Source: Gemmatimonadota bacterium
GTDB taxonomy: Bacteria; Latescibacterota; UBA2968; UBA8231
Reading direction: 5' to 3'
Length of the DNA: 64,000 nucleotides
NCBI GenBank assembly: GCA_038153405.1
Contig: JAYOYH010000001.1
Coordinates: forward strand, 200,403-264,402
Shown: positions 25,705 through 43,379 of the stretch, in pieces
How the letters are laid out: each line of letters begins with the position of its first letter
How positions within the stretch are numbered: the first letter of the stretch is position 1
Made by a program: the position numbers and the translations under genes
The notes under the pieces: generated by a model
The model's database searches: none
Told to the model about the DNA's origin: nothing
The model's input: only the letters and a program-made list of their open reading frames with translations

Positions 25705-25764
25705 CTGGTCCATTTAAATGCAAATGCGGGGGACTGCAAGGTCGGCCGTACCCCCTGCGTGCAG

Positions 25765-25796
25765 TTGACTGACATTCACGTTTACGTTAATATAAA
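25765..25796 (+). promoter_or_regulatory. MerR-type promoter/operator
   Basis: TTGACT, then dyad ATTCACGT-TT-ACGTTAAT within the spacer, then TATAAA. Confidence 0.65.
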
Positions 25797-25837
25797 ACAA
25801 CACTGTGGTATGCCCTTTTAGTGAAGAAGATGAACTC

Positions 25838-26302: not shown

Positions 26303-26351
26303 GAACGCGATGCCGAAGCTCGTGGGGGATCTTCTGGGGAAGGAATGCGGT

Positions 26352-26675: not shown

Positions 26676-26687
26676 AGCGCATCGGGC

Positions 26688-27884
26688 GTGCACCCACCTA
26701 CCATTTACATGGACAACCTGGCGACGACGCCGGTTGACCGCCGCGTCCTCGACGCCATGCTGCCCTATTTCTCCGAGCAGTTCGGCAACGCGTCGAGTGC
26801 GACGCATGCCCTAGGCAACGATGCGGCGATAGCCGTGGCGCAAGCCCGTTGTCAAGTCGCCGCACTCCTCAACGCACGCGATCGAGAAATCCTCTTCACT
26901 TCGGGTGCAACCGAAGCCAATAATCTGGCGTTGAAGGGCGTCGCCGAGCAGGTCGGCGGCGGCCATATTATCACTGCCAAGACCGAACACAAAGCCGTGC
27001 TCGACACCTGTAAGAGTTTGGAACGGCGCGGTTTCAGCGCGACGTATCTCGATGTGGACCGGCATGGCTGCATCGACATAGACGCGTTGGAGCGGGCCAT
27101 TTCCGACGAGACGATTCTGGTTTCCCTGATGGCGGCTAATAACGAAGTGGGCACGCTGCATCCGCTGGAAGCCATTGGCGCGCTTTGCAAGGCGCGCGGC
27201 GTGCTTTTTCACTGCGATGCGGCGCAGGCTGTTGGAAAAATTGAAATAGACGTCGAGGCGCAGGGTATCGATCTATTGTCCCTATCGGCGCATAAGTTTT
27301 ACGGACCCAAAGGGGTTGGCGCGCTGTATGTGCGCTCGCGCTCGCCGCGCGTCCGCCTCTGTCCCCAGCAGGATGGCGGCGGTCAAGAGCGCGGTTGGCG
27401 CGCCGGCACGCTCAACGTGCCTGGGATCGTCGGCCTGGGTATGGCCTGTCAACTCGCTGCAGCCGAATGGCCAAGCGAGGCAGAGCGCCTGATAGCCCTG
27501 CGCTGCCGATTGCGTGCGGGCCTGTCGAGGGTGTTATTAGGGGACGAGTTGAACGGCCATGAAAGCCGGCGTTTGCCCGGCCATTTAAGCCTTAGCTTTG
27601 GCCGGATCGACGGGGCGGAATTGCTGGCCAAGTTGCGGGGGATTGCCCTGTCGTTGGGTGCGGCGTGTTCATCCGATTCGCCGACGCCTTCGCACGTTCT
27701 GGCCGCTATGGGATTCGATGATATGCGGGCGCGTTCGACGCTGCGCTTTGGCCTCGGTCGCTTCACCACAGAGCGCGAAGTCGACTGCGTTGCAGAGCGC
27801 GTCGCCGCGGCCGTCGAACACCTGCGCGGTGCAGACCTCGATCTGCGCCCGTCGAATGGAGTGGATAAAACAGCGGTAGTTTAA
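26688..27884 (+). CDS. iscS: Cysteine desulfurase (IscS/NifS group I)
   Basis: YMDNLATTP, FTSGATEANN, SAHKFYGPKGVG, GGGQE, SLGAACSS. Confidence 0.92.
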   Translation: MHPPTIYMDNLATTPVDRRVLDAMLPYFSEQFGNASSATHALGNDAAIAVAQARCQVAALLNARDREILFTSGATEANNLALKGVAEQVGGGHIITAKTEHKAVLDTCKSLERRGFSATYLDVDRHGCIDIDALERAISDETILVSLMAANNEVGTLHPLEAIGALCKARGVLFHCDAAQAVGKIEIDVEAQGIDLLSLSAHKFYGPKGVGALYVRSRSPRVRLCPQQDGGGQERGWRAGTLNVPGIVGLGMACQLAAAEWPSEAERLIALRCRLRAGLSRVLLGDELNGHESRRLPGHLSLSFGRIDGAELLAKLRGIALSLGAACSSDSPTPSHVLAAMGFDDMRARSTLRFGLGRFTTEREVDCVAERVAAAVEHLRGADLDLRPSNGVDKTAVV

Positions 27885-27905
27885 GGATCATCGGGAGGAG
27901 GAAAT

Positions 27906-29093
27906 ATGAGCGTGACGTCGAGTCAGCTTCTCAATCAGGTCAAGCAAAGCATTGCCGAAGTAACGGCGACCCAAGTTCAGCAGACCCTCAAGGACGGCAA
28001 GGACGTCCACATTGTGGATGTGCGCGAGCGCGACGAGGTGATGGACGGCTATATTCCCGGGGCGGCGCTAATCCCGCGCGGCTTTCTCGAACTCAATATC
28101 GAGGAAGACGTGACGATGAACCGGGAGGCCGAAATCGTGCTCTACTGCGCCGGGGGCAATCGCTCAGCGCTAGCGGCGCGCGATCTGGCATTTATGGGCT
28201 ACACCAACGTGAAGTCCATGATCGGCGGTTTCAAGGGATGGAAAGATGCCGGCTACGATTTTGAGCAGGGGGGGCTGCTGTCGGAGGAAGACATGCAGCG
28301 CTATGCGCGCCATATCATTTTGCCGGAAGTTGGTGAGCAGGGCCAGCAGAAATTGCTCAAAGGTCGCGTGTTGTTGGTTGGCGTCGGCGGCTTGGGATGT
28401 CCCACCGCGCTCTATCTGGCTGCGGCGGGTATCGGTCGAATCGGTTTGGTCGATGCCGACGTAGTCGACAAGAGCAACCTGCAGCGGCAAGTGCTCTTTA
28501 GCGAATCGGATGTCGGCCGTCCCAAGGTCGAGGCGGCGCGCGATCGCTTACTCGGATTAAATCCCGGCATTGACGTGCGCACGCACTACGAATTGCTTAC
28601 GTCGCACAATATCTACGATGTGATGGCCGATTACGACATCATCGTAAACGGCTGCGACAACTTTCCGACGCGCTATTTAGTCAACGATGCGGCCGTATTG
28701 ACGGGCAAGCCAGTAGTCGACGGCAGCATCTTTCGCTTTGAAGGTCAGGCGACGGTTTACATGCCCGGCGATGGTCCGTGTTATCGCTGTCTCTATCCAG
28801 AACCGCCACCGCCCGGAGAAGTGCCGAGCTGTGCCGAGGGCGGCGTTTTGGGCGTGCTGCCCGGCACGGTCGGGCTGATGCAGGCGACGGAGGTAATTAA
28901 GCTGGTCTTGGGCGAGGGTAAGCTGCTGATCGGGCGCGTGCTGCTTTACGATGCCATGGATATGAAGTTTCGCGAGCTAAAACTGCGCCGTGACAGCGAG
29001 TGTCCTGTATGCGGTGACAATCCAACGGTCACGGAGCTGATCGACTACCAGCAGTTTTGTGGGTTGCCTTCGCACAGCGAGGCAGCGGGTTGA
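27906..29093 (+). CDS. moeB: Rhodanese + MoeB/ThiF adenylyltransferase (MoeZ-like)
   Basis: DVRE, LYCAGGNRS; RYARHIILPEVG, GVGGLG, SNLQRQ, CYRC, CPVC. Confidence 0.92.
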   Translation: MSVTSSQLLNQVKQSIAEVTATQVQQTLKDGKDVHIVDVRERDEVMDGYIPGAALIPRGFLELNIEEDVTMNREAEIVLYCAGGNRSALAARDLAFMGYTNVKSMIGGFKGWKDAGYDFEQGGLLSEEDMQRYARHIILPEVGEQGQQKLLKGRVLLVGVGGLGCPTALYLAAAGIGRIGLVDADVVDKSNLQRQVLFSESDVGRPKVEAARDRLLGLNPGIDVRTHYELLTSHNIYDVMADYDIIVNGCDNFPTRYLVNDAAVLTGKPVVDGSIFRFEGQATVYMPGDGPCYRCLYPEPPPPGEVPSCAEGGVLGVLPGTVGLMQATEVIKLVLGEGKLLIGRVLLYDAMDMKFRELKLRRDSECPVCGDNPTVTELIDYQQFCGLPSHSEAAG

Positions 29094-29121
29094 TTTAAAT
29101 CGCGCATAACCCGATATTTTT

Positions 29122-29156
29122 TGGGCGTCGATCCCGGGATCGACGCCCATTTTTTT
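29122..29156 (+). terminator. Intrinsic terminator (perfect 28-bp palindrome)
   Basis: TGGGCGTCGATCCCGGGATCGACGCCCA followed by T7. Confidence 0.8.
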
Positions 29157-29196
29157 GTCGTATGGACCGTATTCATTTCCTCCCGCGGAGCGATGT

Positions 29197-29805
29197 ATGC
29201 CGATTGGCGCAGATCTTGAACTTTTGCTGCAATTGACCGATATCGATGAGGTGGATCCCACCCTAGATTGGACCGATATATTTGCCAATAAAAATCCAGT
29301 AGAAGTGGAGATTGGCATCGGCAAGGGGCGCTTTTTAATCGATTCGGCTCAGCGCCGTCTCGACGTAAACTTCGTCGGCGTCGAATGGGCGATGAAATAC
29401 CTGCGCATGGCCCATGCTCGCTGCATGCGTCGGTCGTTGGAAAACGTGCGTTTTGTGCGCGCCGACGCGCGCGAATTCGTCGAGTTTTTCATTCCTACGC
29501 GTTCGGTGCAAGCGTATCATATATACTTTCCCGATCCCTGGCCCAAGAAGCGCCATCACAAGCGTCGCTTGTTCAATCGCGACTTTCTCGCCGAAGTGGA
29601 GCGCACGCTGATGCCCGGTGGCCATCTGTGGCTGGCCACCGATTTTGTCGAGTATTTTGACGTCATACTCGAAGTGTTGGATGAGAGCGACCATTTGCGC
29701 GCGGTGGAGGCCGAATGGGATGGGGCAAAGACCAATTACGAGGAAAAGTACATCGCCGCCGGCAAGCCCATCTACCGCCGCGTATTGGCATATTCGCCCG
29801 ATTAG
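29197..29805 (+). CDS. trmB: tRNA (guanine-N7)-methyltransferase
   Basis: VEIGIGKG, FPDPWPKKRHHKRRL, ATD, TNYEEK. Confidence 0.95.
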   Translation: MPIGADLELLLQLTDIDEVDPTLDWTDIFANKNPVEVEIGIGKGRFLIDSAQRRLDVNFVGVEWAMKYLRMAHARCMRRSLENVRFVRADAREFVEFFIPTRSVQAYHIYFPDPWPKKRHHKRRLFNRDFLAEVERTLMPGGHLWLATDFVEYFDVILEVLDESDHLRAVEAEWDGAKTNYEEKYIAAGKPIYRRVLAYSPD

Positions 29806-29817
29806 CAAGGGCCGATA

Positions 29818-29850
29818 GGGACCTCCCGTAGAAGGGGGGTCCCATTTTTT
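29818..29850 (+). terminator. Intrinsic terminator after trmB
   Basis: GGGACCTCC...GGGGGTCCC followed by ATTTTTT. Confidence 0.75.
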
Positions 29851-29960
29851 CATCCCCAATGAGCACAAAATAGTGTCATTAATACACTTATCTGTGTGCA
29901 CATGGGCGAAAGGGCGATCACGGCGTGAAAAAATCTCCTATCTAGCTGATAAAATTATGC

Positions 29961-29989
29961 TTGACAGCTATAACTAAAAGTGAGATAAT
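29961..29989 (+). promoter_or_regulatory. Sigma70 promoter of dcw operon
   Basis: TTGACA-N17-GATAAT. Confidence 0.75.
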
Positions 29990-29994
29990 TGAGA

Positions 29995-30040
29995 AAGTGG
30001 TGTAAAAGGGTGTAGTAGGGTGTGTTGCGGTTGGCGGTGT
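29995..30040 (+). repeat. 10-bp-phased direct repeats, MraZ operator-like
   Basis: GGTGT at 29999, 30009, 30019, weaker GGTTG at 30029, just downstream of the promoter. Confidence 0.7.
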
Positions 30041-30063
30041 AATTCAGGACTAAGGGTCTGATA

Positions 30064-30504
30064 ATGGAGCAATTTCTCGGCGAATACGATGTGCCAGTGG
30101 ATGAGAAGGGGCGCATATTTGTTCCAGCTGAGTTTCGGCGCAAACTGCCTGCCGCGGCCGATAGCACCTTTGTCGTCGTGCGCGGCTACGACCACTGTCT
30201 GACGGCTTATCCTCAACACGTGTGGGAAGAAACGGCGAAGAAACTCATGCGCCTCCCGCAGACAGAGCGGCGCAATCGCGTATTCATACGCGCGATGCTG
30301 TCGCAGGCTGCCGAAGTAAAAATGGACCGACAGGGCCGCGCCGGCATTCCGCGCAAGCTGTTGGGTCGCGCCGGTATTGGCGAGCACATGGTGGTGATTG
30401 GTGCGCTGGACAAATTGGAATTTTGGAATCCAGATGACTGGCACAAGTTCATGGAAGAGGCCGACGAGGGTATGGAAGCGGCGGCCGAACATCTCGACCT
30501 ATAG
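30064..30504 (+). CDS. mraZ: Division/cell wall cluster repressor
   Basis: VDEKGRIFVP and MDRQGRAGIP motifs. Confidence 0.95.
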   Translation: MEQFLGEYDVPVDEKGRIFVPAEFRRKLPAAADSTFVVVRGYDHCLTAYPQHVWEETAKKLMRLPQTERRNRVFIRAMLSQAAEVKMDRQGRAGIPRKLLGRAGIGEHMVVIGALDKLEFWNPDDWHKFMEEADEGMEAAAEHLDL

Positions 30505-30524
30505 CGGACAGTGAATTCTAGGCT

Positions 30525-31454
30525 ATGTCATATCACGTTCCCGTGCTGTGCAATGCGGTTGTCGAGTATCTGGCCATTGAGCCCGGTGGAATCTACCTCG
30601 ATGCGACAGCCGGCGGGGGCGGGCACAGCGCTGCCCTGTTGCACGCGCTGGACAGTGGTGCGACGGTATGGGTTGTCGACCGCGACGCCGATGCCATCGA
30701 ACAGGCAACGCGCACGCTGGCAGGAGACGAGCGCGCGCGGGTTCGACGGGCCAGCTTTGCCGAATTGGGTGCTCTGTTGGAGGCCGAAGGCGTGTGCAAC
30801 CTCAGCGGGGTGCTGTTTGACCTGGGGGTTTCGTCGCACCAAATCGATGCGGCGCACAGGGGGTTTAGCTACCGGTCGGCGGGGCCTTTAGATATGCGAA
30901 TGGATTCGACTCAGGGGAGGACGGCGGCCGATATTATCGGAGCGGCTTCGGAGAAAGAACTATTGCAAATCGTGCGCGATTTCGGCGAAGAGCGCCGTGC
31001 CGGAGCGGTCGCTAAGAGCATCGTGCGCATGCGGTCGGGAGCGCCGCTACAGACCACCGACGATCTGCGTAGGGCAGTGGAAAATACGCGTCCACAGATG
31101 CTCAACAAAACGCTGGCGCGCGTTTTTCAGGCTTTCAGAATTGCCGTCAACGGCGAGTTAGACCAACTATCAGATGGGCTTGCTGCCGTCGCTGGTCGTT
31201 TGGCGGTGGGGGGGCGTCTAGCCGTCATCGCCTATCATTCGCTCGAAGATCGCCTCGTCAAACAGGGCCTGGCCGAACGCATGCGCGGGTGTATTTGCCC
31301 TCCTCGCATGCCGGTGTGCGCATGCGGGCGAAAGCCCGAATTTGCCAAAGTCGATCGCGGTCGCATAAAACCTAGTGCTGATGAAATTGCCAACAATAGC
31401 AGGGCGCGCAGCGCCGTTTTGCGCGTATTCGAAAAAATAGAGGAATGTGCATGA
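30525..31454 (+). CDS. rsmH: 16S rRNA m4C methyltransferase
   Basis: HVPVL, DAT.GGGGHS, DLGVSS.Q, PLDMRM, FQA.RI.VN, YHSLEDR, RARSA. Confidence 0.96.
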   Translation: MSYHVPVLCNAVVEYLAIEPGGIYLDATAGGGGHSAALLHALDSGATVWVVDRDADAIEQATRTLAGDERARVRRASFAELGALLEAEGVCNLSGVLFDLGVSSHQIDAAHRGFSYRSAGPLDMRMDSTQGRTAADIIGAASEKELLQIVRDFGEERRAGAVAKSIVRMRSGAPLQTTDDLRRAVENTRPQMLNKTLARVFQAFRIAVNGELDQLSDGLAAVAGRLAVGGRLAVIAYHSLEDRLVKQGLAERMRGCICPPRMPVCACGRKPEFAKVDRGRIKPSADEIANNSRARSAVLRVFEKIEECA

Positions 31455-31765
31455 CGCGTGATGTTCGTAGATTCAACCATTCTTTTCGATGCGGCCGCGG
31501 GGTCGCTCTGATCGGCCTGTTGATCGGCGCTATGCTCTTTCGCGTATGGCAAAAAGTCGAAGTAGCGGCTATCGATCGGCAGTATTGGGAGGCGCAGCAG
31601 ATGATGGATGAACTGGGCCACGAGCGAACAAAGCTCATGGCTGGCATTGCCTTCAAAAAGAAGTTAGAGATGATAGAGCACGTCGCCGTGGGACAGATTG
31701 GTATGGTCTACGCCAGGGGGAGTGAAGCGGTGGCGGGTCATTGGACGGCAAAAGACATCGACTGA
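31451..31765 (+). CDS. ftsL: FtsL-like cell division protein
   Basis: Single TM plus coiled coil between rsmH and ftsI. Confidence 0.65.
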   Translation: MTRDVRRFNHSFRCGRGVALIGLLIGAMLFRVWQKVEVAAIDRQYWEAQQMMDELGHERTKLMAGIAFKKKLEMIEHVAVGQIGMVYARGSEAVAGHWTAKDID

Positions 31766-33768
31766 TGATCGACAGTCGGCGACAGGCGACCTGGTGTGGT
31801 CCGCGGCGGTTGCGCATTGCCGCCTGCTTTGGCCTGCTCTTTTGGGCGGTGCTGGCCGGCCGTCTGGTGCAGGTGCAAGGCGTGCTGGGGACGGCCTATG
31901 CCGAGCGCGCCCACGACCAATACGTGCGGCGCACGGCCTTGGAAGCGCGCCGCGGTAGCCTGTTGGATCGCCGCGGCACCGAAATGGCCACCGACGTCAA
32001 AGCGCGGTCGTTTTACGCACGCCCCGATCGCGTCGAGGATCCACAGGCTGTTGCCCAATTTTTTGCGCGGCTGAGCGGCGCAAATGCTGCGGCGCTCGCC
32101 GATCAACTGAGCAGCGAGCGCCCCTTTGTTTACCTGGTGCGCCAAATAGACGGGGATGGGCTCAGCGCCCCGGCCGATTCCTTTGCCGGCGTATACAGCC
32201 ACAGCGCAACGCGGCGATTTTACCCGTTAGGGCCGCTGGCCGGACAGCTCTTAGGGCACACGGATATTGACAATCGAGGTCGCGAGGGCATCGAACGCTC
32301 CTTTGACGACCAACTGCGCGAGATGGACGGGGCGATGGTCTCCTACGTCGATGCGCGCGGCCTACAGGTGCCCGGTCGCGTCCAGGCGCAAGACCAGCCG
32401 CAGGACGGCCGCAGCATGGTCGTTACAATAGATGCCCTCTATCAGAGCATACTCGAAGAAGAACTCGCGCGCACAGTAGACGAAGTGGATGCCAATGGGG
32501 CAATGGGCGTGGTGCTCGACCCCCATAGTGGTGAAATTCTGGCGATGGCCAACGTTCCCCTATTCGATCCGAATAGAGCGGGCAGGTCGACGGCCGCGCT
32601 GCGGCGCAATCGGGTCATAGCCGATGCCTACGAACCGGGTTCCACCTTCAAGGTCATTGCGGCCGCTGCAGTGCTGGAAGATCGTTTGGCGCGCACGCAC
32701 GACCGCGTCGATTGCCAGCAGGGGATTTTGAAGTTGGCCAACGGCGAGGTGATCCGCGATATCGCCCCGCACGGCGAGTTGAGCTTTGCCGAGGTGATCG
32801 AAAATTCCAGCAACATCGGCTTGATAAAGTTTGCGCGCCGACTGCCGCGCGCGCGTTTTTACCAGTACATCCGCAGCTTTGGCTTTGCCTCGCGCAGCGG
32901 AGTAGAACTGCCGGCTGAAAGCAGCGGTCTATTGCAGCGAGTCGATGGCTGGTCCGAGCGCTCGTTAGAGACCATTGCCATCGGTCAGGAAATCAGCGTT
33001 ACGGTGCTGCAGCTGGCACAGGCCTATGCGGCCATTGCCAACGGTGGAAAGCTGATGGCGCCGCAAATCGTTAGGGGATATGCCGGGGAAGATGGCCGGA
33101 TTATCGATGCGGCTGTCCCGGCAGTCGTGCGGCGCGTAATCGGCGAGGAAACGGCCGCTGTGATGCGGCGGATATTGCGCGGCGTCGTCGATAGCGGCAC
33201 GGGCCATCGCGCGCAAATTGCAGGCGTAACGGTTGCCGGGAAGACGGGTACGGCACAGAAGGCCGCCGCCAACGGAAGCGGGTACGATCCCGACGCGAGT
33301 ATTGTCTCATTCGCTGGTTTCCTGCCCGCCGAAAAACCGCGCTATGTATGTGTTGTCGTCGTCGATGAACCGCGCAAGGATAAATGGGGTGGGAGCGTTG
33401 CCGCGCCGACCTTCCAGCGCGTTATGGAGCGCATCGTCCATCTACCGGGAGGGCTGCTGGCTCACGCACCTATGGCCGGTCCCGTGCCGGCGACGATAAC
33501 GGTGCCCGACCTGCGCGGCATGACGCGGGCTGCAGCTCGTCTAACGGCGCGGCTGCGCGGAATGGAGGCGGTCGCCGAGGGGGGTGGAACCGTCGTCGTG
33601 GCTCAGCGGCCTGCACCTGGAGAAGAAGTCCTCGTCGGCGTCGACATTCGCTGTCAAATGGGAGAAGACCTGTCCTATATGGATGGCGCGCAAGAGTTGC
33701 AAGGAAGGCAGGCGCGTTTGTTCGAAGCTATGGAAGCGACGCCACCGATTTCGCGCAAGAGGCTCTAG
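31765..33768 (+). CDS. ftsI: Class B PBP (FtsI/PBP3) with PASTA domain
   Basis: RGSLLDRRG, EPGSTFK, SSN, AGKTGTAQ, VPDLRGM. Confidence 0.93.
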   Translation: MIDSRRQATWCGPRRLRIAACFGLLFWAVLAGRLVQVQGVLGTAYAERAHDQYVRRTALEARRGSLLDRRGTEMATDVKARSFYARPDRVEDPQAVAQFFARLSGANAAALADQLSSERPFVYLVRQIDGDGLSAPADSFAGVYSHSATRRFYPLGPLAGQLLGHTDIDNRGREGIERSFDDQLREMDGAMVSYVDARGLQVPGRVQAQDQPQDGRSMVVTIDALYQSILEEELARTVDEVDANGAMGVVLDPHSGEILAMANVPLFDPNRAGRSTAALRRNRVIADAYEPGSTFKVIAAAAVLEDRLARTHDRVDCQQGILKLANGEVIRDIAPHGELSFAEVIENSSNIGLIKFARRLPRARFYQYIRSFGFASRSGVELPAESSGLLQRVDGWSERSLETIAIGQEISVTVLQLAQAYAAIANGGKLMAPQIVRGYAGEDGRIIDAAVPAVVRRVIGEETAAVMRRILRGVVDSGTGHRAQIAGVTVAGKTGTAQKAAANGSGYDPDASIVSFAGFLPAEKPRYVCVVVVDEPRKDKWGGSVAAPTFQRVMERIVHLPGGLLAHAPMAGPVPATITVPDLRGMTRAAARLTARLRGMEAVAEGGGTVVVAQRPAPGEEVLVGVDIRCQMGEDLSYMDGAQELQGRQARLFEAMEATPPISRKRL

Positions 33769-35229
33769 TTGAGGCTGAGCCAATTGCTCGAAGCCTTGCC
33801 TGAAGCGGTCGTAACAGGCCCCGTGGACGGCGTCGTTGGCAAACTGTGCAGCGATTCCCGCCTAGTCGAGAAGGGGGATGTCTTTGTCGCGCTGCGCGGT
33901 GGCCAGCAGCAGGATCGCCATCGCTTTGTCGACGATGCCCTCGGGCGCGGTGCCAGTGCCGTCGTCGTCGAAGAAGAAATACAATGCAGTGCTACGCGCA
34001 TCGTTGTCGCTAGTTGTCGGGCCGCGCTGCCGCGCATGGCGCGCCAATTCTACGGAGCTCCGGGTGATTCAATGCTCAATATTGGCGTCACTGGCACCAA
34101 CGGTAAAACGACGACAGCCTACGTAGTGAGCGCGCTGTTGAGGGCTGCCGGCGTGCCGTGCGGTTATCTGGGCACGCTGGGTTGCGGTGGCGATGAGCCA
34201 TTAGAAAAAATGCCCAATACAACGCCGGAGGCCGATGTGCTGCAGCGCTGTCTGCGCCGGCTCGTCGACGAGGGCATGCGCGCCGCCGCCCTTGAAGTGT
34301 CGTCGCACGGATTGGCTCTTCAGCGCGTAGATGGCATCGATTTTAACGTGGCGATATTCACTAATATAACGCGCGACCACTTAGATTTTCATGGCGATTT
34401 CCCCAGCTATCTGGCTGCAAAGTCGCTGCTATTTGAAGGCTTGAAAAGCGATGCATTTGCGCTGCTTAATGGCGACGATCCCCATGCCGCTGACTTAGCT
34501 GAACGCACGGATGCACAGGTTGTGCGCTATGGGTTGAGCGAGGACGCCGACTGGCACCCGTTGGCAGTGGATATGCGCTGCGACGGCATGAAAATGCAGA
34601 TCGCGTCACCCGGTGGACCGTTTTTTGTCGAGACGGCCCTTACTGGGCGCTTCAACTGTTATAATGTCACCGCGGCGCTGGCGGCGGCGGCTCTCTTGGG
34701 CATTGAGCGCCAGGCGCTATGCGATGGGTTGCGATCGATAAGGGGAGTGCCCGGTCGCTTTGAGTCGCTGCGCGAAGGGCAGGATTTTTCCGTCATCGTG
34801 GACTATGCGCACACACCCGATGCACTCGAGCGCGCCCTGCAGAGCGCGCGGCCGCTGACCGACGGTAGGCTATGGTGTGTATTTGGCTGCGGCGGTGATC
34901 GCGACAGGGGCAAGCGAGCGCTTATGGGACGCGCTGCCGCCCAGTGGGCTGACCGCATTGTGCTCACGTCCGACAATCCGCGCAGCGAAGATCCGGACGC
35001 CATACTCGATGAAATTGCTGTGGGCATACCTGGTGGGCTAGTGTTTGAGCGCGAGGTCAACCGGGGCATCGCCATCGAGCATAGCCTGCGTGCCGCCGGG
35101 CCGGGAGACGTTGTATTGATTGCCGGTAAGGGACACGAATCCGAGCAGATTCTCTCTGATCGCGTCGTTTCCTTTGATGATCGGGATGTTGCGCGGAGCA
35201 TTCTCAGATCGCTCGGCAAGGCTAACTAA
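33769..35229 (+). CDS. murE: UDP-MurNAc-dipeptide:meso-DAP ligase
   Basis: TGTNGKTT, TTP, EVSSH, DHLDFH, DYAHTPD, DNPR. Confidence 0.95.
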   Translation: MRLSQLLEALPEAVVTGPVDGVVGKLCSDSRLVEKGDVFVALRGGQQQDRHRFVDDALGRGASAVVVEEEIQCSATRIVVASCRAALPRMARQFYGAPGDSMLNIGVTGTNGKTTTAYVVSALLRAAGVPCGYLGTLGCGGDEPLEKMPNTTPEADVLQRCLRRLVDEGMRAAALEVSSHGLALQRVDGIDFNVAIFTNITRDHLDFHGDFPSYLAAKSLLFEGLKSDAFALLNGDDPHAADLAERTDAQVVRYGLSEDADWHPLAVDMRCDGMKMQIASPGGPFFVETALTGRFNCYNVTAALAAAALLGIERQALCDGLRSIRGVPGRFESLREGQDFSVIVDYAHTPDALERALQSARPLTDGRLWCVFGCGGDRDRGKRALMGRAAAQWADRIVLTSDNPRSEDPDAILDEIAVGIPGGLVFEREVNRGIAIEHSLRAAGPGDVVLIAGKGHESEQILSDRVVSFDDRDVARSILRSLGKAN

Positions 35230-35248
35230 TACCGGCAGAGAGGTATCC

Positions 35249-36607
35249 ATGCACGATGTGCAGTTGGATGAAATTCTACAGTGGACGGAAGCAGAACTTG
35301 TTGGTATCTTAGATCGGCCAATTAGACCGTCCGGCGTATCGACCGACAGTCGGAGCACGGTCTCCGGCGAGTTGTTCATCGCCCTGCGTGGCGAACATTT
35401 TGACGGTCACGATTACGTAGAAGCTGCGCTTCTGCGCGGCGCCTGTGCCGCGGTAGTAGAGAAGGAATCCGTCGCTCGGTATGCATCGGGAATAGGGCCT
35501 TTACTCGTCGTAGACAGTGCCCTAAAAGCCCTCGGCCAGATGGCCGCTCGCTATCGGGCTCGTTTTGATGTACCCGTTATCGGCATTACCGGTTCGTCCG
35601 GCAAGACGACGACGAAGGAAATGGTCGCGGCGGTGCTCGGGCATCGCTTCAATGTGTTGAAGACCATTGCCAGCGAGAATAACGAAATAGGCGTTCCGCG
35701 CACGCTGCTCAATCTCAACCGGCAACACGAGGCGGTGGTGCTGGAGTTGGCAGCGCGCAAAGAGGGCGATATACATTACCTGTGTACCATCGCCCAGCCT
35801 ACCATAGGGGTCCTGCTGAACATCGGCAGTGCCCATCTCGAGTTTTTTGGATCTGTAGAGGGGGTGGCCAAGGCTAAAGGGGAGCTCCTGGAGTATCTGG
35901 ATGAGTCTTTAACAGCTCTCATCAATGCTGATGACCGTGTCGTGTGTCAGGAGGTTTTGAGGACAAAGGGGAGACTCCTGACCTTCGGTTTTCAGTCTGA
36001 GAGCACGTTTCGTGGGGAGGGACTCATCTTAGACCAGGAGGGCTGCGGCCACTTCCTTCTACAAACGCATTCCATCGACTTAAAAATCCCCGGTAAACAT
36101 AACGCCTATAACGCATTAGCTGCTGCCGCTATAGGCGGAATTTTGGGCGTTGAGCCCGGCGATATTCGCCGTGCCCTGTCGGAGTTTAGGCCGGTAGACC
36201 GGCGCACGGAAGTCGTGCAGGTGCGGGGGATGACGATCGTCAATGACAGCTACAACGCCAATCCCGGGTCAGTCGGCGCCGCGTTGGACATGCTCTCGGC
36301 AATGCGCGGAGGGCGCAAAATCGTCCTGTTAGGCGATATGTTAGAATTGGGTGAGACGGCGCCCCAATTGCATGAAGAAATCGGCGGCAGGGCCGCTGAG
36401 GTTGCCGATGTCGTACTCGCAGTAGGGCCGCTCGCTCGGCATATTGCCCGGGGGGCGCGCGCTGCTGGTGCCGCGCAGGTGACGCACTTTGATCTGAAGG
36501 AAGAAGCCACAGCCCATCTCAACGCAACGCTAGAACCCGATGACATTCTCCTTGTCAAGGCTTCGCGGGGCATGGGACTGTGGGACGTCGTAGACGCAAT
36601 CGGCTGA
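35249..36607 (+). CDS. murF: UDP-MurNAc-tripeptide:D-Ala-D-Ala ligase
   Basis: STDSR, GEHFDGH, TGSSGKTTTKE, NNEIGVP, NDSYNANP, GDMLELG, VKASRG. Confidence 0.95.
   Translation: MHDVQLDEILQWTEAELVGILDRPIRPSGVSTDSRSTVSGELFIALRGEHFDGHDYVEAALLRGACAAVVEKESVARYASGIGPLLVVDSALKALGQMAARYRARFDVPVIGITGSSGKTTTKEMVAAVLGHRFNVLKTIASENNEIGVPRTLLNLNRQHEAVVLELAARKEGDIHYLCTIAQPTIGVLLNIGSAHLEFFGSVEGVAKAKGELLEYLDESLTALINADDRVVCQEVLRTKGRLLTFGFQSESTFRGEGLILDQEGCGHFLLQTHSIDLKIPGKHNAYNALAAAAIGGILGVEPGDIRRALSEFRPVDRRTEVVQVRGMTIVNDSYNANPGSVGAALDMLSAMRGGRKIVLLGDMLELGETAPQLHEEIGGRAAEVADVVLAVGPLARHIARGARAAGAAQVTHFDLKEEATAHLNATLEPDDILLVKASRGMGLWDVVDAIG
35854..36063 (+). other. Long rod-like RNA structure embedded in murF coding sequence
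   Basis: Seven nested helices (~67 bp) about a common centre near 35964; G-U pairs work on the sense strand; CpG depletion. Confidence 0.75.
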
Positions 36608-36741
36608 GATTTCCCTAATCTTAGCCCTTATCCATCTGCTCCCACCAGATGGTCCCTTTGTTCCAAGTTTGACTAGGCCGTAGTCCATCCCACGGACTCG
36701 CTGCTTGGCTTTCCCCGTTCGAGGCACGGAGAAGCCGCTTC

Positions 36742-37860
36742 ATGTACGCCGTACAGCGTGCTGGAACGCATTTGCTGCTGGTTTGCTTGGTATTGGTCGG
36801 GCTTGGACTGGTAATGATTTACAGTGCTAGCTCCGAACTAGCACGGGTGCGCTTTGACGATAGCAGTTTCTTTCTCAAGCGGCAGAGCGCGCGCGCCGCA
36901 TTGGGCCTAGTCGTGATGTGGGTCCTCTCGCGTGTGCCGCTGCTGGCGTGGGCGCGCTTTTCCCGCTCCATTATGCTGTCGGCCATCGCCCTTCTCGTAC
37001 TCGTCTTATTTTTTGGCACAGGACCCGCGCAGCGCTGGTTGTCCATGCCGGCCTTCCTAGCGGGCGTAACCTTCCAACCCTCCGAATTTGCCAAGCTGGC
37101 TCTGGTCCTCTACCTGGCCGATGTATTGGTGCGCAAAGAAGGCGATCTGCAGGAGTTTAAGCGAGGCCTGCTGCCCCGCCTCGTCGTCGTCGGACTCGTA
37201 CTCATACTAATCGCGGCCCAGCCCGATTTGGGCACCGCCATAGCCGTCGGCAGCATTGCCATGGTTCTCCTGTGGGTTGGCGGAGTGCAGCCCATGCAGT
37301 TGGGGGCTGTGCTGCTTGCTGGCGGCAGCGGCGTGGTGCTTTCGCTGCTCACCTCGCCTTATCAGATGGCCCGCTTGACCAACTTCATCAACGGCAGCGG
37401 CGAGGACGCTGGAAACTATCAGGTTACTCAGTCGCTGATCGGCATGGGCAACGGCCAACTTTTGGGCGTGGGTTTGGGCAATAGCATGCAGAAGCTGCAG
37501 TATCTGCCCGAGCCGCATACGGACTTCGTATTCGCTTTTGTCGGCGAAGAACTGGGTCTGGTAGGGGCGCTCGGGATCATCGCTCTCTTTATCGCCTTTG
37601 CCCTCTACGGACTGCGCATTGCACGCGATGCGGAGGACAGCCACGGCTTCCTGCTGGCGACGGGTATAACGGCCATGATATCTATATATGCGATGCTCAA
37701 TATGGGGGTGGTTACAGGTATTCTGCCGACGACGGGATTGCCCCTGCCCTTTCTCAGCTATGGTGGCTCGTCTCTGCTGTGGAATATGGCGGGCGTTGGC
37801 ATTTTAATGGGCGTAGCGCGCCAATCGGCGGGCAGCGGACAGGGGAGACGGCGCCGATGA
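36742..37860 (+). CDS. ftsW: SEDS peptidoglycan polymerase
   Basis: GLVMIYSAS, FQPSEFAK, QPDLG, LPEPHTDF, GEELG, PFLSYGGSS. Confidence 0.95.
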   Translation: MYAVQRAGTHLLLVCLVLVGLGLVMIYSASSELARVRFDDSSFFLKRQSARAALGLVVMWVLSRVPLLAWARFSRSIMLSAIALLVLVLFFGTGPAQRWLSMPAFLAGVTFQPSEFAKLALVLYLADVLVRKEGDLQEFKRGLLPRLVVVGLVLILIAAQPDLGTAIAVGSIAMVLLWVGGVQPMQLGAVLLAGGSGVVLSLLTSPYQMARLTNFINGSGEDAGNYQVTQSLIGMGNGQLLGVGLGNSMQKLQYLPEPHTDFVFAFVGEELGLVGALGIIALFIAFALYGLRIARDAEDSHGFLLATGITAMISIYAMLNMGVVTGILPTTGLPLPFLSYGGSSLLWNMAGVGILMGVARQSAGSGQGRRRR

Positions 37861-39236
37861 CGCTGGAGCAGCGCTTTAAACACGCCCACCTCGTGGGCAT
37901 CGGCGGCATTGGAATGGAAGGGCTAGCGCGCCTGCTGCGCGCGCGCGGTCTGCGCGTGACCGGGTCGGATATGGCACCGTCAAAAGCGCTGGGCCTGCTG
38001 CGGGAAGATGGTTTCGAGGTGCATGTGGGACACGCTGCGCACCAGATTGGCAATGCCGATCTACTCGTCTATTCGGCGGCCGTCCCCGCCGACAATGCCG
38101 AGCGTCAGGTCGCACTTCGACGCGGCATTGCCTGCGCCAGTCGCGCAGAAGTGCTCGGCCAATTGAGCCGCTGGCGGCGCACGGTGGCCGTTGCTGGAAC
38201 GCACGGTAAAACCACTTCTGCGGCCATGTTGGCGGCCGTTCTGCACCGTGCAGGGCTGCAGCCGGATATCTTGGTCGGGGGATGGGTTGGCGGGCGCGCC
38301 CACGCGGAAATTGGGCGCGGCGAATGGCTGGTCGTCGAGGCCGATGAATACGCGCGCAGTTTCTTGGACCTCCACCCCGATGTGGCGCTGGTAACCTGCG
38401 TCGAAGCGGAACACCTCGACTATTATGGCACGCTGAGCCAAGTCCAAAGTGCCTTTACTGAGTTCTTGGATCGCTTGCCCTTCTACGGAGTGGCCTTTGT
38501 CGGCGGGGACGACTTGGTCGCGGCAGAAATTCTGTCCACTACCCGCCGAGCGAGCCGCACCTACGGCGTTCGGGCCGACAGCGACTTCCGCATTGTCGAC
38601 GTGGAGCTGAGCCCTTGGGAAAGCCACTTTTCGCTGCTGTGTGAGGGCGCCCAACGGGTCGATTTAGCGCTGCGCGTGCCGGGTTTACACAACGTGCGCA
38701 ACGCCGCTGGTGCCGCCGCCGCTGCGCACCATATCGGCGTCGATGGGGAATGCATCGCGGCGGCGCTGGCCGAGTTTGAGGGCATTGATCGCCGCTTTCA
38801 GTTCAGGGGTGAGGCCGGCGATGTATGGGTGGTCGACGACTATGCGCATCACCCGCGCGAAGTCGGCGTTGCATTGGAAACCGCACGGGGCAGTGGGCGT
38901 CGAACCGTAGCTGTGTTTCAGCCCCACCTCTACTCGCGCACGCGCGATTTTGCCGAAGACTTTGCCCGCGAACTATCGGTCGCAGACCGCGTCGTTTTAA
39001 CCGACGTGTACGCGGCGCGGGAACGCCCTTTGCCCGGCGTTGATAGCCATTTAATTCGAGATGCGATGCGCCATTCGGGCTATGAATGCGTCGACTACGT
39101 CGCCGATGTCGCCGATGTCGTGCAGCACTTGGTCGAAGTCTGTCGTCCTGGCGATGTGGTGCTGACGATGGGAGCGGGCAATATCGGTGATATAGCAGGC
39201 CCACTAGTTGCAGCACTTGGCGGAGGTCAGCAGTGA
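37857..39236 (+). CDS. murC: UDP-MurNAc:L-Ala ligase
   Basis: GIGGIGM, AGTHGKTT, EADE, RRF, DDYAHHP, FQPHLYSRT, TMGAG. Confidence 0.93.
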   Translation: MTLEQRFKHAHLVGIGGIGMEGLARLLRARGLRVTGSDMAPSKALGLLREDGFEVHVGHAAHQIGNADLLVYSAAVPADNAERQVALRRGIACASRAEVLGQLSRWRRTVAVAGTHGKTTSAAMLAAVLHRAGLQPDILVGGWVGGRAHAEIGRGEWLVVEADEYARSFLDLHPDVALVTCVEAEHLDYYGTLSQVQSAFTEFLDRLPFYGVAFVGGDDLVAAEILSTTRRASRTYGVRADSDFRIVDVELSPWESHFSLLCEGAQRVDLALRVPGLHNVRNAAGAAAAAHHIGVDGECIAAALAEFEGIDRRFQFRGEAGDVWVVDDYAHHPREVGVALETARGSGRRTVAVFQPHLYSRTRDFAEDFARELSVADRVVLTDVYAARERPLPGVDSHLIRDAMRHSGYECVDYVADVADVVQHLVEVCRPGDVVLTMGAGNIGDIAGPLVAALGGGQQ

Positions 39237-40081
39237 AAAAGAAGATCGAGCGCAAAGGGGCGACGCGTCCAATGGTTGCTCGGGGTGGCGAAGCGCGCCG
39301 TCGCCGACTCAACTGGAAGCTGGCCTGGATGTTCCTGCCGATGCTGATGCTGGCGACGTTGGCGTGGGGATGGTGGGAGTGGCGCCAATCGGGAAGCTTT
39401 GCCCGCCAGTTTGAATTGACCGCTATCGAGGTCAATGGGCTGCGCTTGCTGAGCGGAGAAGACGTGCTGCAGGCGAGCGGATTGGCCATAGGGGACAACG
39501 TCTTGGACATCGATTTGCGCGCAGTGGCGCGGCGACTCGAAGATGTGCCGTGGATCAAGCGCGCCGTAGTGATGCGCAAGCCGCCGGATCGCCTTGTCGT
39601 CGAATTGGTCGAGCGCCAGCGCATGGCTTGGGTCGCCCTCGAGCACACCTACGGAATTGACGCAGAAGGCGTTTTGCTGCCGGCGCAGCGCCTGGCCAAT
39701 GAATCGCTGGGCGACTTTGACTTACCGGTTATTTCGGGCATTACCACCGATGTGGATTCGCTCTATCCGGGCATGGTTCTGGCCGATACCTCACACTCCC
39801 TGCGCGCAGTGCTGGACTGGTGGCAGCGCGCCAGCGCCGTCGATCCTGAGTTTTGCTTGGGCATTTCCGAAATCGCTGCGCTAAGCGACGAGGGGATTGG
39901 TCTGCGCTTGGCCGGCGATGGCTTGGAGGTGCGCTTGCCCTTTGACCGCGTCGACGAGCGCCTGCGCCATCTGAAGCGCATGATGCCGAGAATCTATCGC
40001 GAATATCCCAATCCCACCTACATCGACCTGCGCTATGCCGGCCAACTCGTCGTTGGCGGCAAGGAGGAGGGCGCCGGATGA
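39233..40081 (+). CDS. ftsQ: Cell division protein FtsQ
   Basis: Basic N-terminus, TM, POTRA domain, YIDLRY. Confidence 0.9.
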   Translation: MKKKIERKGATRPMVARGGEARRRRLNWKLAWMFLPMLMLATLAWGWWEWRQSGSFARQFELTAIEVNGLRLLSGEDVLQASGLAIGDNVLDIDLRAVARRLEDVPWIKRAVVMRKPPDRLVVELVERQRMAWVALEHTYGIDAEGVLLPAQRLANESLGDFDLPVISGITTDVDSLYPGMVLADTSHSLRAVLDWWQRASAVDPEFCLGISEIAALSDEGIGLRLAGDGLEVRLPFDRVDERLRHLKRMMPRIYREYPNPTYIDLRYAGQLVVGGKEEGAG

Positions 40082-41316
40082 GCGAGGGCGTAAAGCGCGT
40101 CGTCGGCCTCGATCTCGGCACGACGAAAATATGCACGGTCATTGCCGAGGTAGAGCCGAAGAAAATGCCGCGCATTCTCGGCTTTGGCAGCTGCCCTTCA
40201 CAGGGCTTGCGCCGCGGCGTCGTCACCGACGTCGAAAAGACGGTGCAGTCAGTGGAAAAAGCCGTGCGCCAGGCCGAACTAATGGCCGGCATTGCGGTGA
40301 AGGAAGTGACCGTGGGCATCGCCGGTGAACACGTCAATAGCCTGAACAGCTCGGGCGTTGTGGCGGTGGCCAGTAGCGATGGGCGCATCACCGAGGAAGA
40401 TCGCCAGCGGGTGCTCGAGGCAGCTGGCGCGGTAAAGATACCCATCGACCGAGAAGTGCTGCACATCCTGCCGCAGGAGTTTATCGTCGACGGGCGCCGC
40501 GATATTGCCGATCCGGTCGGCATGCTGGGCGTGCGCTTGGAAGCGCACGTACACGTAGTATCAGGGGCCGTGACGGCTGCGCAGAATATATGTCGCAGCA
40601 TTTTGCGCGCGGGGTTGGAAGTGCGCGACATTGCCCTCGAACCGCTGGCTTCTAGCGCCGCGGTCCTCGACGCCGACGAGCGCCATATGGGGGTTTGTCT
40701 AGTCGACGTGGGAGGCGGCACGACGGATATGGCCGTATTCGCCCGCGGCGGCATTCGCTACACCGGCGTCATTGGCCTGGGCGGACAAAATATCACCAGC
40801 GATGTGGCAATCGGTCTGCGCACGGGATGGCCCATTGCCGAGAAGATCAAGTGCGCCAGCGGCACGGCGGCGCTGTATGCGGTGGGCGAGGACGAGACGG
40901 TGGAAGTGCCGGGCGTGGCGGGTCGCCCACCCCAGCGGGTCGCCCGCCGCCTATTGGCCGATATCATCGAGGCGCGCATGGAGGAGATCTTCGTGCTCGT
41001 GCGCGACCAACTCGGCATTGCGCGCTTTGAACTGGGTGCGGGCATCGTGCTGACCGGTGGTGGGGCGCTGATGGAGGGAGCGGTTGAACTGGCTGAGCGC
41101 ATTTTCGAAGTGCCCGTTCGCCTGGGAATACCGGGCGGCGTAGTCGGCATGAGCGATGGCGTCGATAATCCCAGCTATGCCACGGCTGTTGGTCTGGCTA
41201 GACTCGCCGGTGAGCGCAGCGAGCCCGGCCAGTGGCTCAAGGAGGAAAATTTAGACGAAGCGGGGTTTGAAGCAGTATTCGGGCGCATGAAAGAGTGGTT
41301 CCAAACCTGGGTCTGA
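40078..41316 (+). CDS. ftsA: Cell division protein FtsA
   Basis: GLDLGTTK, DVGGGTTD, LTGGG, amphipathic MKEWF tail. Confidence 0.96.
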   Translation: MSEGVKRVVGLDLGTTKICTVIAEVEPKKMPRILGFGSCPSQGLRRGVVTDVEKTVQSVEKAVRQAELMAGIAVKEVTVGIAGEHVNSLNSSGVVAVASSDGRITEEDRQRVLEAAGAVKIPIDREVLHILPQEFIVDGRRDIADPVGMLGVRLEAHVHVVSGAVTAAQNICRSILRAGLEVRDIALEPLASSAAVLDADERHMGVCLVDVGGGTTDMAVFARGGIRYTGVIGLGGQNITSDVAIGLRTGWPIAEKIKCASGTAALYAVGEDETVEVPGVAGRPPQRVARRLLADIIEARMEEIFVLVRDQLGIARFELGAGIVLTGGGALMEGAVELAERIFEVPVRLGIPGGVVGMSDGVDNPSYATAVGLARLAGERSEPGQWLKEENLDEAGFEAVFGRMKEWFQTWV

Positions 41317-41362
41317 GCGCGGCTTGTACGCATTCAGACACACCTTAGCGAGGAGATCTGCT

Positions 41363-42532
41363 ATGAGTTTTAAAATCGTTGACAATGAACGCAAAGCGCG
41401 CATCAAAGTCGTGGGCGTAGGCGGTGCGGGGGGCAACGCCATCAACCGCATGATTCAATCGGGTATGAACGGCGTAGAATTTATCGCCATCAATACGGAC
41501 GCCCAGGTCCTGGAGACGTCTTCGGCTGACGCGTGCATATGTATCGGCGATGGCGTGACGCGCGGTCTGGGGGCCGGTGCCGATCCCCAGGTCGGACGTC
41601 AGGCCATCGAGGAAGATCGCGACAAGGTAGCCGAGCGCCTAGCCGATGCCGACCTCGTCTTTATAACGGCGGGCATGGGAGGAGGAACCGGCACTGGGGC
41701 CGCCCCGGTGGTGGCCGAAATCTGCCGCGATCTGGGGGCGTTGGCGGTGGGCATTGTAACGGAGCCCTTTGTCATGGAGGGATTTCCGCGCATGCGCAAT
41801 GCGCACACCGGCTTGAACGAATTACAGGAGCGTGTCGATACGCTCATCACCATCAAAAACCAGCGGCTGTTGAGCATCTGCGACCGCGATACGACCTTGG
41901 ATCAGGCTTTTTTCCAAGCCGATGAAGTGCTCATGCAAGCCACGCGCGGCATTGCCGATTTGATTACAATTCCCGGCATGATCAACCTCGACTTCAACGA
42001 CGTAAAGACGATTATTTCGCAGGGGGGCGATGCGATTATGGGCGTCGGCACGCACAAGGGCGAAAACCGCGCCGTCGAAGCGGCGCGCAAGGCCATTCAG
42101 AGTCCGCTCTTGGAAGACGTGTCTATTCACGGTGCCAAGGGCGTGCTCATTAATATCGCCGCCGACTCCAATTTGACCCTCTTTGAAGTCAACGATGCGA
42201 TGTCGCTGATCTACGAAGCGGCTGGGCAGGAGGCCAATATCATTTTTGGCACGGTGAAAGACGATCAAATGCTCGATGAGATTAGCGTTACCGTCATTGC
42301 AACGGGCTTTAATCTCAGCAGCGAAAGCCGGGTGAGTCCGTCCGTTCCCCAGCGCGAAAAGCAAGTCGCTGAAGCGTCGAGTGAAGCACCGGGCGTGCGC
42401 ACGCTCGATCCCCAGTTGAACGTGCCGGCACACACGCGCCGTCGCTCCTTGGCCGCTGAAGGGAACAGTTCATCTGCGGCTAGCGGGGAGAATTTGGATA
42501 TTCCCACGTTTCTGCGGCGAAAGTTGGGTTAA
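41363..42532 (+). CDS. ftsZ: Cell division protein FtsZ
   Basis: GVGGAGGNA, GMGGGTGTG, NLDFND, DIPTFLR. Confidence 0.98.
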   Translation: MSFKIVDNERKARIKVVGVGGAGGNAINRMIQSGMNGVEFIAINTDAQVLETSSADACICIGDGVTRGLGAGADPQVGRQAIEEDRDKVAERLADADLVFITAGMGGGTGTGAAPVVAEICRDLGALAVGIVTEPFVMEGFPRMRNAHTGLNELQERVDTLITIKNQRLLSICDRDTTLDQAFFQADEVLMQATRGIADLITIPGMINLDFNDVKTIISQGGDAIMGVGTHKGENRAVEAARKAIQSPLLEDVSIHGAKGVLINIAADSNLTLFEVNDAMSLIYEAAGQEANIIFGTVKDDQMLDEISVTVIATGFNLSSESRVSPSVPQREKQVAEASSEAPGVRTLDPQLNVPAHTRRRSLAAEGNSSSAASGENLDIPTFLRRKLG

Positions 42533-42711
42533 GCGCGATAGGATGGAGATTGCGCACCGACGCCGATGGAGTATATTATCGGCTGTAAATAGTTGATCCG
42601 TTGCAGTTTAAGAGCAATTGGCTACGGGGCCACTACCCGGTTGAGTGCTGGGCCGTGCCACCGTCGGCGGATTGAAAACCAGAAACCTCCACGATGGGAT
42701 AAAGAGACCAA

Positions 42712-43362
42712 TTGGCAAACAGAAGTCGCATTTCAAAACTCTTGTCGCTCATGCTGCGCCACAAGCCCGACGAGTTTGGCTTGGAAATTGACACCTATGG
42801 CTACGCGCCGGTCGACCAAGTGCTGCAGGCTCTGCAGGAGCGCTATGACGACGCTACAGAGGGTGATTTAACGGCGTTGGCCAACGATCCAACTCAGCGC
42901 CGCTTCGAAATAAACGAGTACGGGATTCGCGCCCTGTATGGACACAGCTTCTTCGTCGAAATGGACGGCGAGCCAATGAATCCACCGCCGGCTCGCCTCT
43001 ACATGGGCACCACGCGCGCCGCAGCGCGCGACTTTGCCCGCGAGGGCATCACTTCGGGAGACCGCTACTACGTGCACCTCTCGCTCGACCAGGACACGGC
43101 CGCCTCGCGCAGCCACGAGAAGAGCGGTCCGCTCGTGGTGGAAATCCTCGCGGATAAGGCCCACGAGCAGGATATCGCCTTCTTTGCGCGCGGCGAAGTC
43201 ATCCTGACGGAGGAAATTCCTCCGGAATGCGTCGGCGCGCTGCTGGGAGCAGAAGGCGCGGTGGGCGGCGGTGCAGTTCAAGCCGACGAGCCGACGTCGT
43301 CGCCGGCCGGTCGCGATCAGGCCGTCACCTACGGTCGCAAACCGCGCTTTGTAACGCGTTAA
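42712..43362 (+). CDS. kptA: RNA 2'-phosphotransferase (Tpt1/KptA)
   Basis: SKLLSLMLRHKP, RRF, IRALYGHS, RYYVHLS; TTG start. Confidence 0.88.
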   Translation: MANRSRISKLLSLMLRHKPDEFGLEIDTYGYAPVDQVLQALQERYDDATEGDLTALANDPTQRRFEINEYGIRALYGHSFFVEMDGEPMNPPPARLYMGTTRAAARDFAREGITSGDRYYVHLSLDQDTAASRSHEKSGPLVVEILADKAHEQDIAFFARGEVILTEEIPPECVGALLGAEGAVGGGAVQADEPTSSPAGRDQAVTYGRKPRFVTR

Positions 43363-43379
43363 TTCTCTCAGGCTGATTT

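Follow-up and report, generated by a model that had tools for sequence, protein, structure and literature searches.

The DNA considered here is a 64,000-nt stretch of contig JAYOYH010000001.1 (assembly GCA_038153405.1; positions 200,403 to 264,402 of the forward strand), hereafter termed the window and numbered from its first letter. An open reading frame (ORF) at 35120-36607 on its plus strand encodes MurF, the UDP-MurNAc-tripeptide--D-Ala-D-Ala ligase, as judged by TIGR01143 (413 bits against a cut-off of 288.6) and by the presence of the N-terminal, middle and C-terminal Mur ligase domains. Within this coding sequence, at 35849-36068 (+), lies a 220-nt segment whose transcript would form a single RNA rod of 66 consensus base pairs in nine helices; the rod covers MurF residues 245-315 (71 codons), inside the Mur ligase middle domain (Pfam residues 156-338). 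The segment is kept nearly letter for letter across its class in Candidatus Latescibacterota, and this degree of retention makes a second job as RNA likely.

The surrounding genes form a cell-wall cluster, ordered over 31741-39236 as a penicillin-binding protein (PBP) with PASTA domain (FtsI-like), murE, murF, an FtsW/RodA-family gene, and murC; i.e., murE (33769-35229) precedes murF and the FtsW/RodA-family gene (36742-37860) follows it, with the PASTA-domain PBP farther upstream and murC farther downstream. Neither mraY nor murD occupies its usual place between murF and ftsW in this interval. The longest murF ORF begins at a TTG (35120) and overlaps murE by 110 nt; the ATG at 35249 is probably the true start, because homolog alignments begin near residue 40-44. 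Within 36499-36741, a 134-nt spacer separates murF from the ftsW-family gene, and a local structure with a z-score of -4.78 spans the end of murF at 36499-36665. As the initial annotation had stated, the MurF frame runs intact through the rod. An overlapping ORF was ruled out, the other five frames carrying stops in 29-30 of 30 murF homologs; the latter were gathered by protein search, range from the same genus out to the same class, and fall to 46-49% in protein identity.

Folding, silent-site constraint and covariation

The segment 35854-36063 (+) folds as one rod with a minimum free energy (MFE) of -94.8 kcal/mol (z -4.70), a value reached by none of 200 dinucleotide shuffles, and the six helix arms listed in the initial annotation are present as written, where it had placed them. 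Over 35852-36064, the MFE also lies below that of codon-preserving shuffles, both when synonymous codons are permuted (z -4.44) and when codons are drawn anew according to their usage in five neighbouring genes (z -4.08), with none of 400 shuffles reaching the real value in either case. In an Lfold z-score scan of the entire window, however, the rod (z -5.18) ranks third among the 42 plus-strand local structures that span 150 nt or more, the other leading structures scoring -5.41, -5.20, -5.08 and -5.03, with four others no more than 0.3 z units away. A scan of such size can be expected to turn up about this degree of thermodynamic stability; the stability of the rod is not in itself exceptional, and it is conservation and covariation in relatives that lift it above chance. 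Folds as stable as the rod or more so (z -5.0 to -6.1) also occur at 14276-14515, 29757-29926, 43302-43501 and 10421-10582, the first of these about 600 nt from a tRNA gene (15100-15172, minus strand).

Synonymous variation is depressed in precisely the rod segment. Across the 30 homologs, synonymous-codon conservation (10-codon means) is 0.74-0.93 over 35846-36075 and 0.38-0.79 in the rest of murF, the conserved region being bounded at both ends by the foot of the closing stem. Among 16 sequence pairs, four of which do not involve the window genome, the fraction of identical codons at conserved residues is 0.61-0.96 in the rod vs 0.25-0.67 outside it (Fisher p 4e-4 to 6e-16). Conservation and consensus pairing stop at 35849/36068, which leaves a suggested extension of the fold to 35804/36109 unsupported; the best-conserved part, 35854-36063, coincides with the interval first annotated. 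The reported contrast in CG dinucleotides, 5 in 35841-36040 vs 23 in 36301-36500, is exact as a count, but GC dinucleotides are equally low (6 vs 28 in the same two intervals), and the depletion is thus not CpG specific. Arginine codons in the rod segment comprise two CGT, one AGG and one AGA, vs ten CGG, ten CGC, three CGT, two AGG and one AGA in the rest of the gene.

Pairing is preserved by compensatory change. RNAalifold on the 30 homologs recovers the rod, both partners having changed in 10 of its 45 pairs. A broader sample came from a pattern scan over one genome per species, in which one 56-nt pattern retrieved 95 loci; 91 distinct full-length sequences from these, together with the window, make up a 92-row alignment (termed A2). 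In its consensus, 93.7% of cells are paired, vs 41.6-51.8% when the partners are slid by 1-3 columns; 25 of 66 pairs are changed on both sides (8-15 in the slid controls), as are 249 cells (29-114), and the covariation score of 0.232 (controls, 0.062-0.089) is reached by none of 500 shuffles. Since A2 was selected on two motifs and its consensus structure was derived from A2 itself, we recounted on the 30 protein-chosen relatives with the MFE structure of the window's own sequence: 83.3% of cells are paired (controls, 42-51%), and 17 pairs (2-11) and 84 cells (3-38) are changed on both sides. Some compensations even cost an amino acid change, as where Leu CTC becomes CTT opposite a Glu GAG that becomes Lys AAG. 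Shuffles, silent-site constraint and compensatory changes all support a dual-coded RNA fold within murF, as first proposed from the window alone, and we consider it very probable that the rod is a selected RNA structure.

The strand on which it is selected can also be read from these alignments. The alignment fold energy is -99.1 in the sense orientation and -63.4 in antisense, each of the 92 rows, folded singly, reaches a lower MFE in sense than in antisense, and G-U makes up 15.3% of paired cells vs 1.4% for A-C (11:1). The excess of G-U over A-C and the stronger sense fold thus indicate selection for pairing on the mRNA strand, in agreement with the preference noted initially from the single sequence; the minus strand of the rod also folds well (z -4.64).

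The rod is closed by a helix whose 5' arm (35849-35875, +) pairs with 36041-36068 (+) through 24 pairs, with 92.5% of cells paired and nine pairs changed on both sides. The first of three invariant unpaired motifs, AAAGGGGAG (codons K-G-E), occupies a 9-nt bulge in the 5' strand of the rod (35876-35884, +). There follows helix 2, in which CTCCTGG (35885-35891, +) pairs with CCAGGAG (36034-36040), 99.2% of cells being paired and one pair passing from CG to UA in 17 of 92 rows, and then helix 4, in which GATGAGTCTTT (35899-35909, +) pairs with 36019-36029 and which holds two invariant U-G pairs. The 5' arms of central helices 5-7 (35913-35936, +) pair with 35987-36006; here the register differs among families, and three neighbouring pairs swap UA/CG, CG/GU and UA/CG. 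The apical stem (5' arm 35944-35953, +, with 35975-35983) is kept even in an outgroup family, f9, and closes a 21-nt apical loop (35954-35974, +) in which AAAGGGGAG recurs as the second invariant motif (35965-35973, codons K-G-R). The third, GTGGGGAGGGACT (36012-36024, +; codons G-E-G-L), lies in a 3'-side internal loop, with its GGGGAG at 36014-36019 and a U-rich tract (36007-36013) immediately upstream. Helices 1, 2 and 4 and the apical stem are solid across relatives. Length variants are whole codons located in loops: the apical loop is 6 nt shorter, with its stem intact, in five relatives (L058, L063, L102, L112 and L116), and a 3-nt insertion occupies the 5' internal loop between helices 2 and 4 in L025, L027-L029 and others.

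Distribution, origin and traces in RNA libraries

We surveyed 168 genomes of the phylum, including 131 other members of the class and 36 from other families. By blastn, the rod is present in single copy in 124 of the 131 other Candidatus Latescibacterota class genomes (71/75 in family f1, 28/31 in f2, 3/3 in f3 and 22/22 in f4), vs only three weak partial matches in the 36 genomes of other families. In the seven class genomes without a rod, murF was not found with the query used; every murF found in the class carries the rod. A covariance model of the rod (R1) gave a single match in each of four class genomes (209-243 bits), full-length but weaker matches inside murF in outgroup families f9 (84 and 86 bits) and f11 (42 bits), faint matches in f6, f10 and f12 (17.6-18.8 bits), and nothing in f5, f7, f8, f13 and f14. 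The f9 sequence retains the apical hairpin and its loop motif but not the third motif.

Against five outgroup murF genes, the rod segment shows no insertion or deletion and has the same length, and was therefore written over existing codons rather than inserted. Four of these five outgroup segments fold without excess (z +0.44, -1.72, -1.02 and +0.03); the f9 segment does fold in excess (z -4.57). DNA identity of the rod declines with relatedness, from 98% among members of the genus to 69-72% for the class's most distant family. Equal length, occurrence in every murF found in the class and identity that follows relatedness together speak against a foreign, recombined murF patch, which the initial annotation had named as a possible undoing of its proposal. 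Mobile palindromic elements (RPE or MITE type) occur in many copies per genome and appear as insertions relative to homologs; a repeat of this kind was rejected, as the rod is single copy by blastn and covariance model and involves no indel, other blastn matches within the window genome having E values of at least 0.1. Raw DNA identity does not set the rod apart, since distant members of the class match further genes of 24001-44000 at 65-71% too.

Most of the 95 loci (L039-L133) carry Candidatus Latescibacterota in their record titles. Some near-identical rods are filed under Gemmatimonadota/Gemmatimonadetes, Gemmatimonas phototrophica, Handelsmanbacteria and Planctomycetota, and the deposited taxonomic labels of the rod-bearing clade thus look inconsistent. 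Given that one 56-nt pattern retrieved 95 species-level genomes, the rod is a compact diagnostic marker for this clade. In two metagenome-assembled genomes (G003, contigs C115 and C8; L104), assembly breaks fall inside the rod, with contigs ending at rod positions 145 and 76, as would be expected if co-assembled strains share an ultra-conserved stretch.

Part of the stretch was found in 17 metatranscriptome runs from 14 studies, contigs from RNA libraries containing the rod in three studies and its flanks in a fourth. Assembled contigs give neither RNA ends, strand nor relative abundance; their depth is one mean per contig, summed over strains, and their ends are unreliable. In two studies with different adapters (X1, TruSeq; X6, Nextera), contigs end at 36014 directly against the adapter, at a nucleotide in the loop just before the third motif; in X1, the upstream contig has a depth of 18.3 and the downstream contig 2.1, both being identical to the window genome. 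Adapter junctions of this kind can be PCR duplicates, and the shared end is a weak hint of an RNA end. High depth over the rod was not counted as evidence, since depth sums strains and the high-depth contigs carry the letters of a relative. This applies to a 165-nt X2 contig (35876-36040; depth 281.6 vs 4-8 for flanking contigs identical to the window genome), to a 460-nt X4 contig (depth 169), and to the same-genus locus L013, for which the rod alone is covered in X2, X6 and X7 (depths 13-282) and nothing in X5; a relative's flanks may be too dissimilar to pass the likeness threshold, and nothing follows from parts without coverage. In two studies, contigs start at 35876; these starts were likewise discarded as RNA ends and are probably assembly branch points instead, as they adjoin a polymorphic silent site at 35875.

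Possible roles of the rod

The three GGGGAG motifs are invariant and unpaired in A2, and are complementary to the 16S rRNA 3' tail of relatives, which in four of them reads GGATCACCTCCTTTCT and terminates in CACCTCCTTTCT. Paired by eye, AAAGGGG and GGGGAGG can each form seven pairs with this tail, wobbles included, and about seven are available to each of the three motifs. The genome does use Shine-Dalgarno (SD) sequences, with a GGAG peak at -12 to -9 and the core at 37% of crude starts vs 10% in the control. In the rod, 11 GGAG/GAGG cores fall within 213 nt, against a genome mean of 1.39, which places it in the top 2e-4 of windows; no ATG, GTG or TTG lies 5-12 nt downstream of any motif in a usable frame. 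Five other loci in the genome with three GGGGAG or dense GGAG were inspected and are unrelated, several being acidic, low-complexity coding stretches.

We favour, with a probability of roughly 0.4, a reading in which the rod is an FtsO-like, ORF-internal stable hairpin RNA, cut from the transcript of the cell-wall operon and displaying its GGGGAG motifs to a partner. The rod would be released from the operon transcript by cleavage, or shielded inside it (the genome encodes RNase III), and would persist as a stable ORF-internal RNA. Its three exposed SD-like motifs would then bind a partner, candidates being the anti-SD tail of the 30S subunit, a C-rich RNA, or a protein, and such binding would tie translation or envelope stress to murF expression. 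More tentatively, the product may be a free-standing, abundant regulatory RNA of a new family, which titrates the 30S subunit or another binder via its three motifs and thereby links cell-wall precursor synthesis to the state of translation. If so, the free murF rod would be a large, ORF-embedded decoy RNA conserved across a candidate-phylum class.

Several points weigh against this reading. Excision of a hairpin would each time cost the cell one mRNA for an essential protein, and a search of the genome, which is 93% complete, did not find the Hfq on which FtsO relies. GGGGAG is a weaker anti-SD match than GGAGG, and the motifs lie in codons (KGE, KGR and GEG) that themselves constrain them. 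The RNA libraries contribute only assembled contigs, which show presence in RNA and not a discrete species, and the X1 contig runs continuously from 35462, in upstream murF, into the rod, which fits plain mRNA equally well. Finally, the rows of A2 were chosen by a pattern spanning two of the motifs, and covarying counts overstate the number of independent events, because the relatives share ancestry.

A cis-acting element that is never released from the operon mRNA is the main, if doubtful, alternative to the excised hairpin. As a double-stranded RNase III target, a transcript end or a stability element, it would set the ratio of the upstream (PBP, murE) to the downstream (3' murF, ftsW, murC) message, or may slow or attenuate expression when translation lags, and 30S subunits would be retained on its SD-like motifs in the manner of STAB-SD elements. 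Its place in the sense strand of a polycistronic cell-wall cluster, the 66 base pairs alongside an encoded RNase III, the SD-like motifs with no start codon after them (as in STAB-SD), and the conserved U-rich tract (36007-36013) that follows the apical half of the rod are all consistent with such a role. The contig ends at 36014 and the fall in X1 depth beyond it add a weak hint, but depths and ends of contigs are unreliable and adapter junctions can be duplicates. Simple cleavage or pausing, moreover, needs no near-invariant loops and helices across a class, and other classes of the phylum do without the element. The 3' arm past 36014 is itself conserved and covarying, and a full-length, read-through RNA must therefore matter.

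It is very unlikely that the rod is the clade's 6S-like RNA, hidden inside murF and binding RNA polymerase. 6S RNA binds the sigma-70 holoenzyme and templates a product RNA, and its long helices enclose a large bubble at the centre. An element of about 200 nt that is rod-shaped, single in each genome and universal in the clade would suit this role, and the Rfam 6S model finds no 6S RNA in the genome at E<=1. However, the same model does not match the rod at E<=10, and it detects 6S RNA in only 5 of 14 control genomes, the window genome being 93% complete. The rod has no central bubble that is large on both sides, its widest loops measuring 9/0, 9/3 and 7/3 nt and the centre of the rod being almost wholly paired in the window genome, and the sequence is far better conserved than is usual for 6S RNA. 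Rfam 15 as a whole gave no match overlapping the rod at E<=10 within 35000-37000; the segment 35830-36090 searched alone returned five chance matches (11.7-15.1 bits vs gathering scores of 41-60), and the entire window yielded, at gathering score, one tRNA and nothing else.

Stimulation of a -1 programmed frameshift, which would yield a truncated MurF, is suggested by the classic layout of TTTTTT (35843-35848), a 5-nt spacer and a strong structure, yet we regard it as extremely improbable. The T-run is unconserved (relatives have TATTTT, ATATTC or GTGTTC) and is not in the X XXY YYZ frame; in every one of the 30 homologs the -1 frame runs into a stop about 12 codons on, which would leave a dead fragment as product, and 220 nt with invariant loops exceed by far what a stimulator needs. 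A constraint at the DNA level, for example a cruciform, or an operator or recombination site in the form of a palindrome bound by protein, is likewise extremely improbable: the minus strand does beat its own shuffles, but the surplus of G-U over A-C and the weaker antisense consensus energy point to RNA, and known protein sites are much shorter than 66 nested pairs. A CsrA sponge was rejected, as CsrA (PF02599) occurs in 55 of 168 phylum genomes (28/75 in f1, 10/31 in f2, 1/3 in f3 and 2/22 in f4) and does not track the element. Hardly any weight falls to the absence of a second function (chance, protein-level selection, a rare-codon cluster or a mutational cold spot), for although the rod is only third of 42 in stability and other conserved genes of the window match distant members of the class as well (65-71% DNA identity), protein selection cannot freeze silent sites, rare-codon selection makes no pairing-preserving compensations, some of them through amino acid replacement, and four of five equal-length outgroup murF segments show no excess folding.

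Relation to known RNA elements

The closest parallel to the excised hairpin is FtsO, an ORF-internal small RNA (sRNA) inside ftsI, in the cell-division cluster of E. coli; its wobble positions are 91% identical vs 67% in the rest of the gene, its reads outnumber those of the host mRNA by orders of magnitude, and its authors present it as the first ORF-internal sRNA of bacteria for which a regulatory role is documented (PMC7815308). The two share a location inside the coding sequence of an essential cell-wall or division-cluster gene, on its sense strand, and a silent-site conservation above that of the rest of the gene (91% vs 67% for FtsO; 0.61-0.96 vs 0.25-0.67 for the rod), as well as a conserved unstructured stretch that is proposed as contact site. 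They differ in that FtsO is short, associates with Hfq and acts as a sponge of the sRNA RybB, its transcript having been mapped and its target tested, whereas the rod, known from sequence, has 220 nt, 66 pairs and three repeated purine motifs, and belongs to another gene and another phylum, with no sequence likeness to FtsO and with Hfq not found in its genome.

STAB-SD elements, reportedly described by Agaisse and Lereclus in 1996 as mRNA stabilisers in the cryIIIA leader of Bacillus thuringiensis, where a bound 30S subunit lengthens the half-life of the message, resemble the rod motifs in being SD-like, complementary to the 16S 3' end (here, that of relatives) and followed by no start codon. 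STAB-SD consists of one perfect GAAAGGAGG, placed in an untranslated leader at the 5' end; the rod instead offers three weaker GGGGAG motifs in its loops, inside a coding sequence, and any stabilisation by them is putative. Decoy RNAs of the CsrB/RsmZ type repeat a short, GGA-containing purine motif in unpaired regions of a structured RNA, and the rod likewise presents several unpaired copies of such a motif; it has three only, however, lacks an Rfam match, and is not tracked by CsrA. Silent-site suppression over a conserved RNA structure is also documented for coding-sequence elements of viruses, e.g., cis-acting replication elements (PMC2377429). There, the host sequence is an RNA virus genome, in which the RNA is the genome, whereas the rod resides in a chromosomal housekeeping gene of a bacterium.

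A literature search on RNA structure or synonymous sites in the murF coding sequence gave no description of such an element among the papers listed, and one on noncoding RNA in Latescibacteria gave no paper. It is commonly assumed that bacterial coding sequences contain no large conserved RNA structures. If the rod is functional, one stretch of DNA can bear strong dual selection for hundreds of millions of years, and there would be a handle on gene regulation in a phylum without a cultured member; this would also argue for scanning coding regions, and not intergenic DNA alone, for structured RNAs. Ultimately, ORF-internal functional RNAs are a known but rare kind, from whose described members the rod differs in size, shape, gene, clade and motif layout: with its 66 pairs it is much larger than FtsO, and it is class-wide, placed in an essential peptidoglycan gene, and maintained even where amino acid changes have been accepted to save base pairs.

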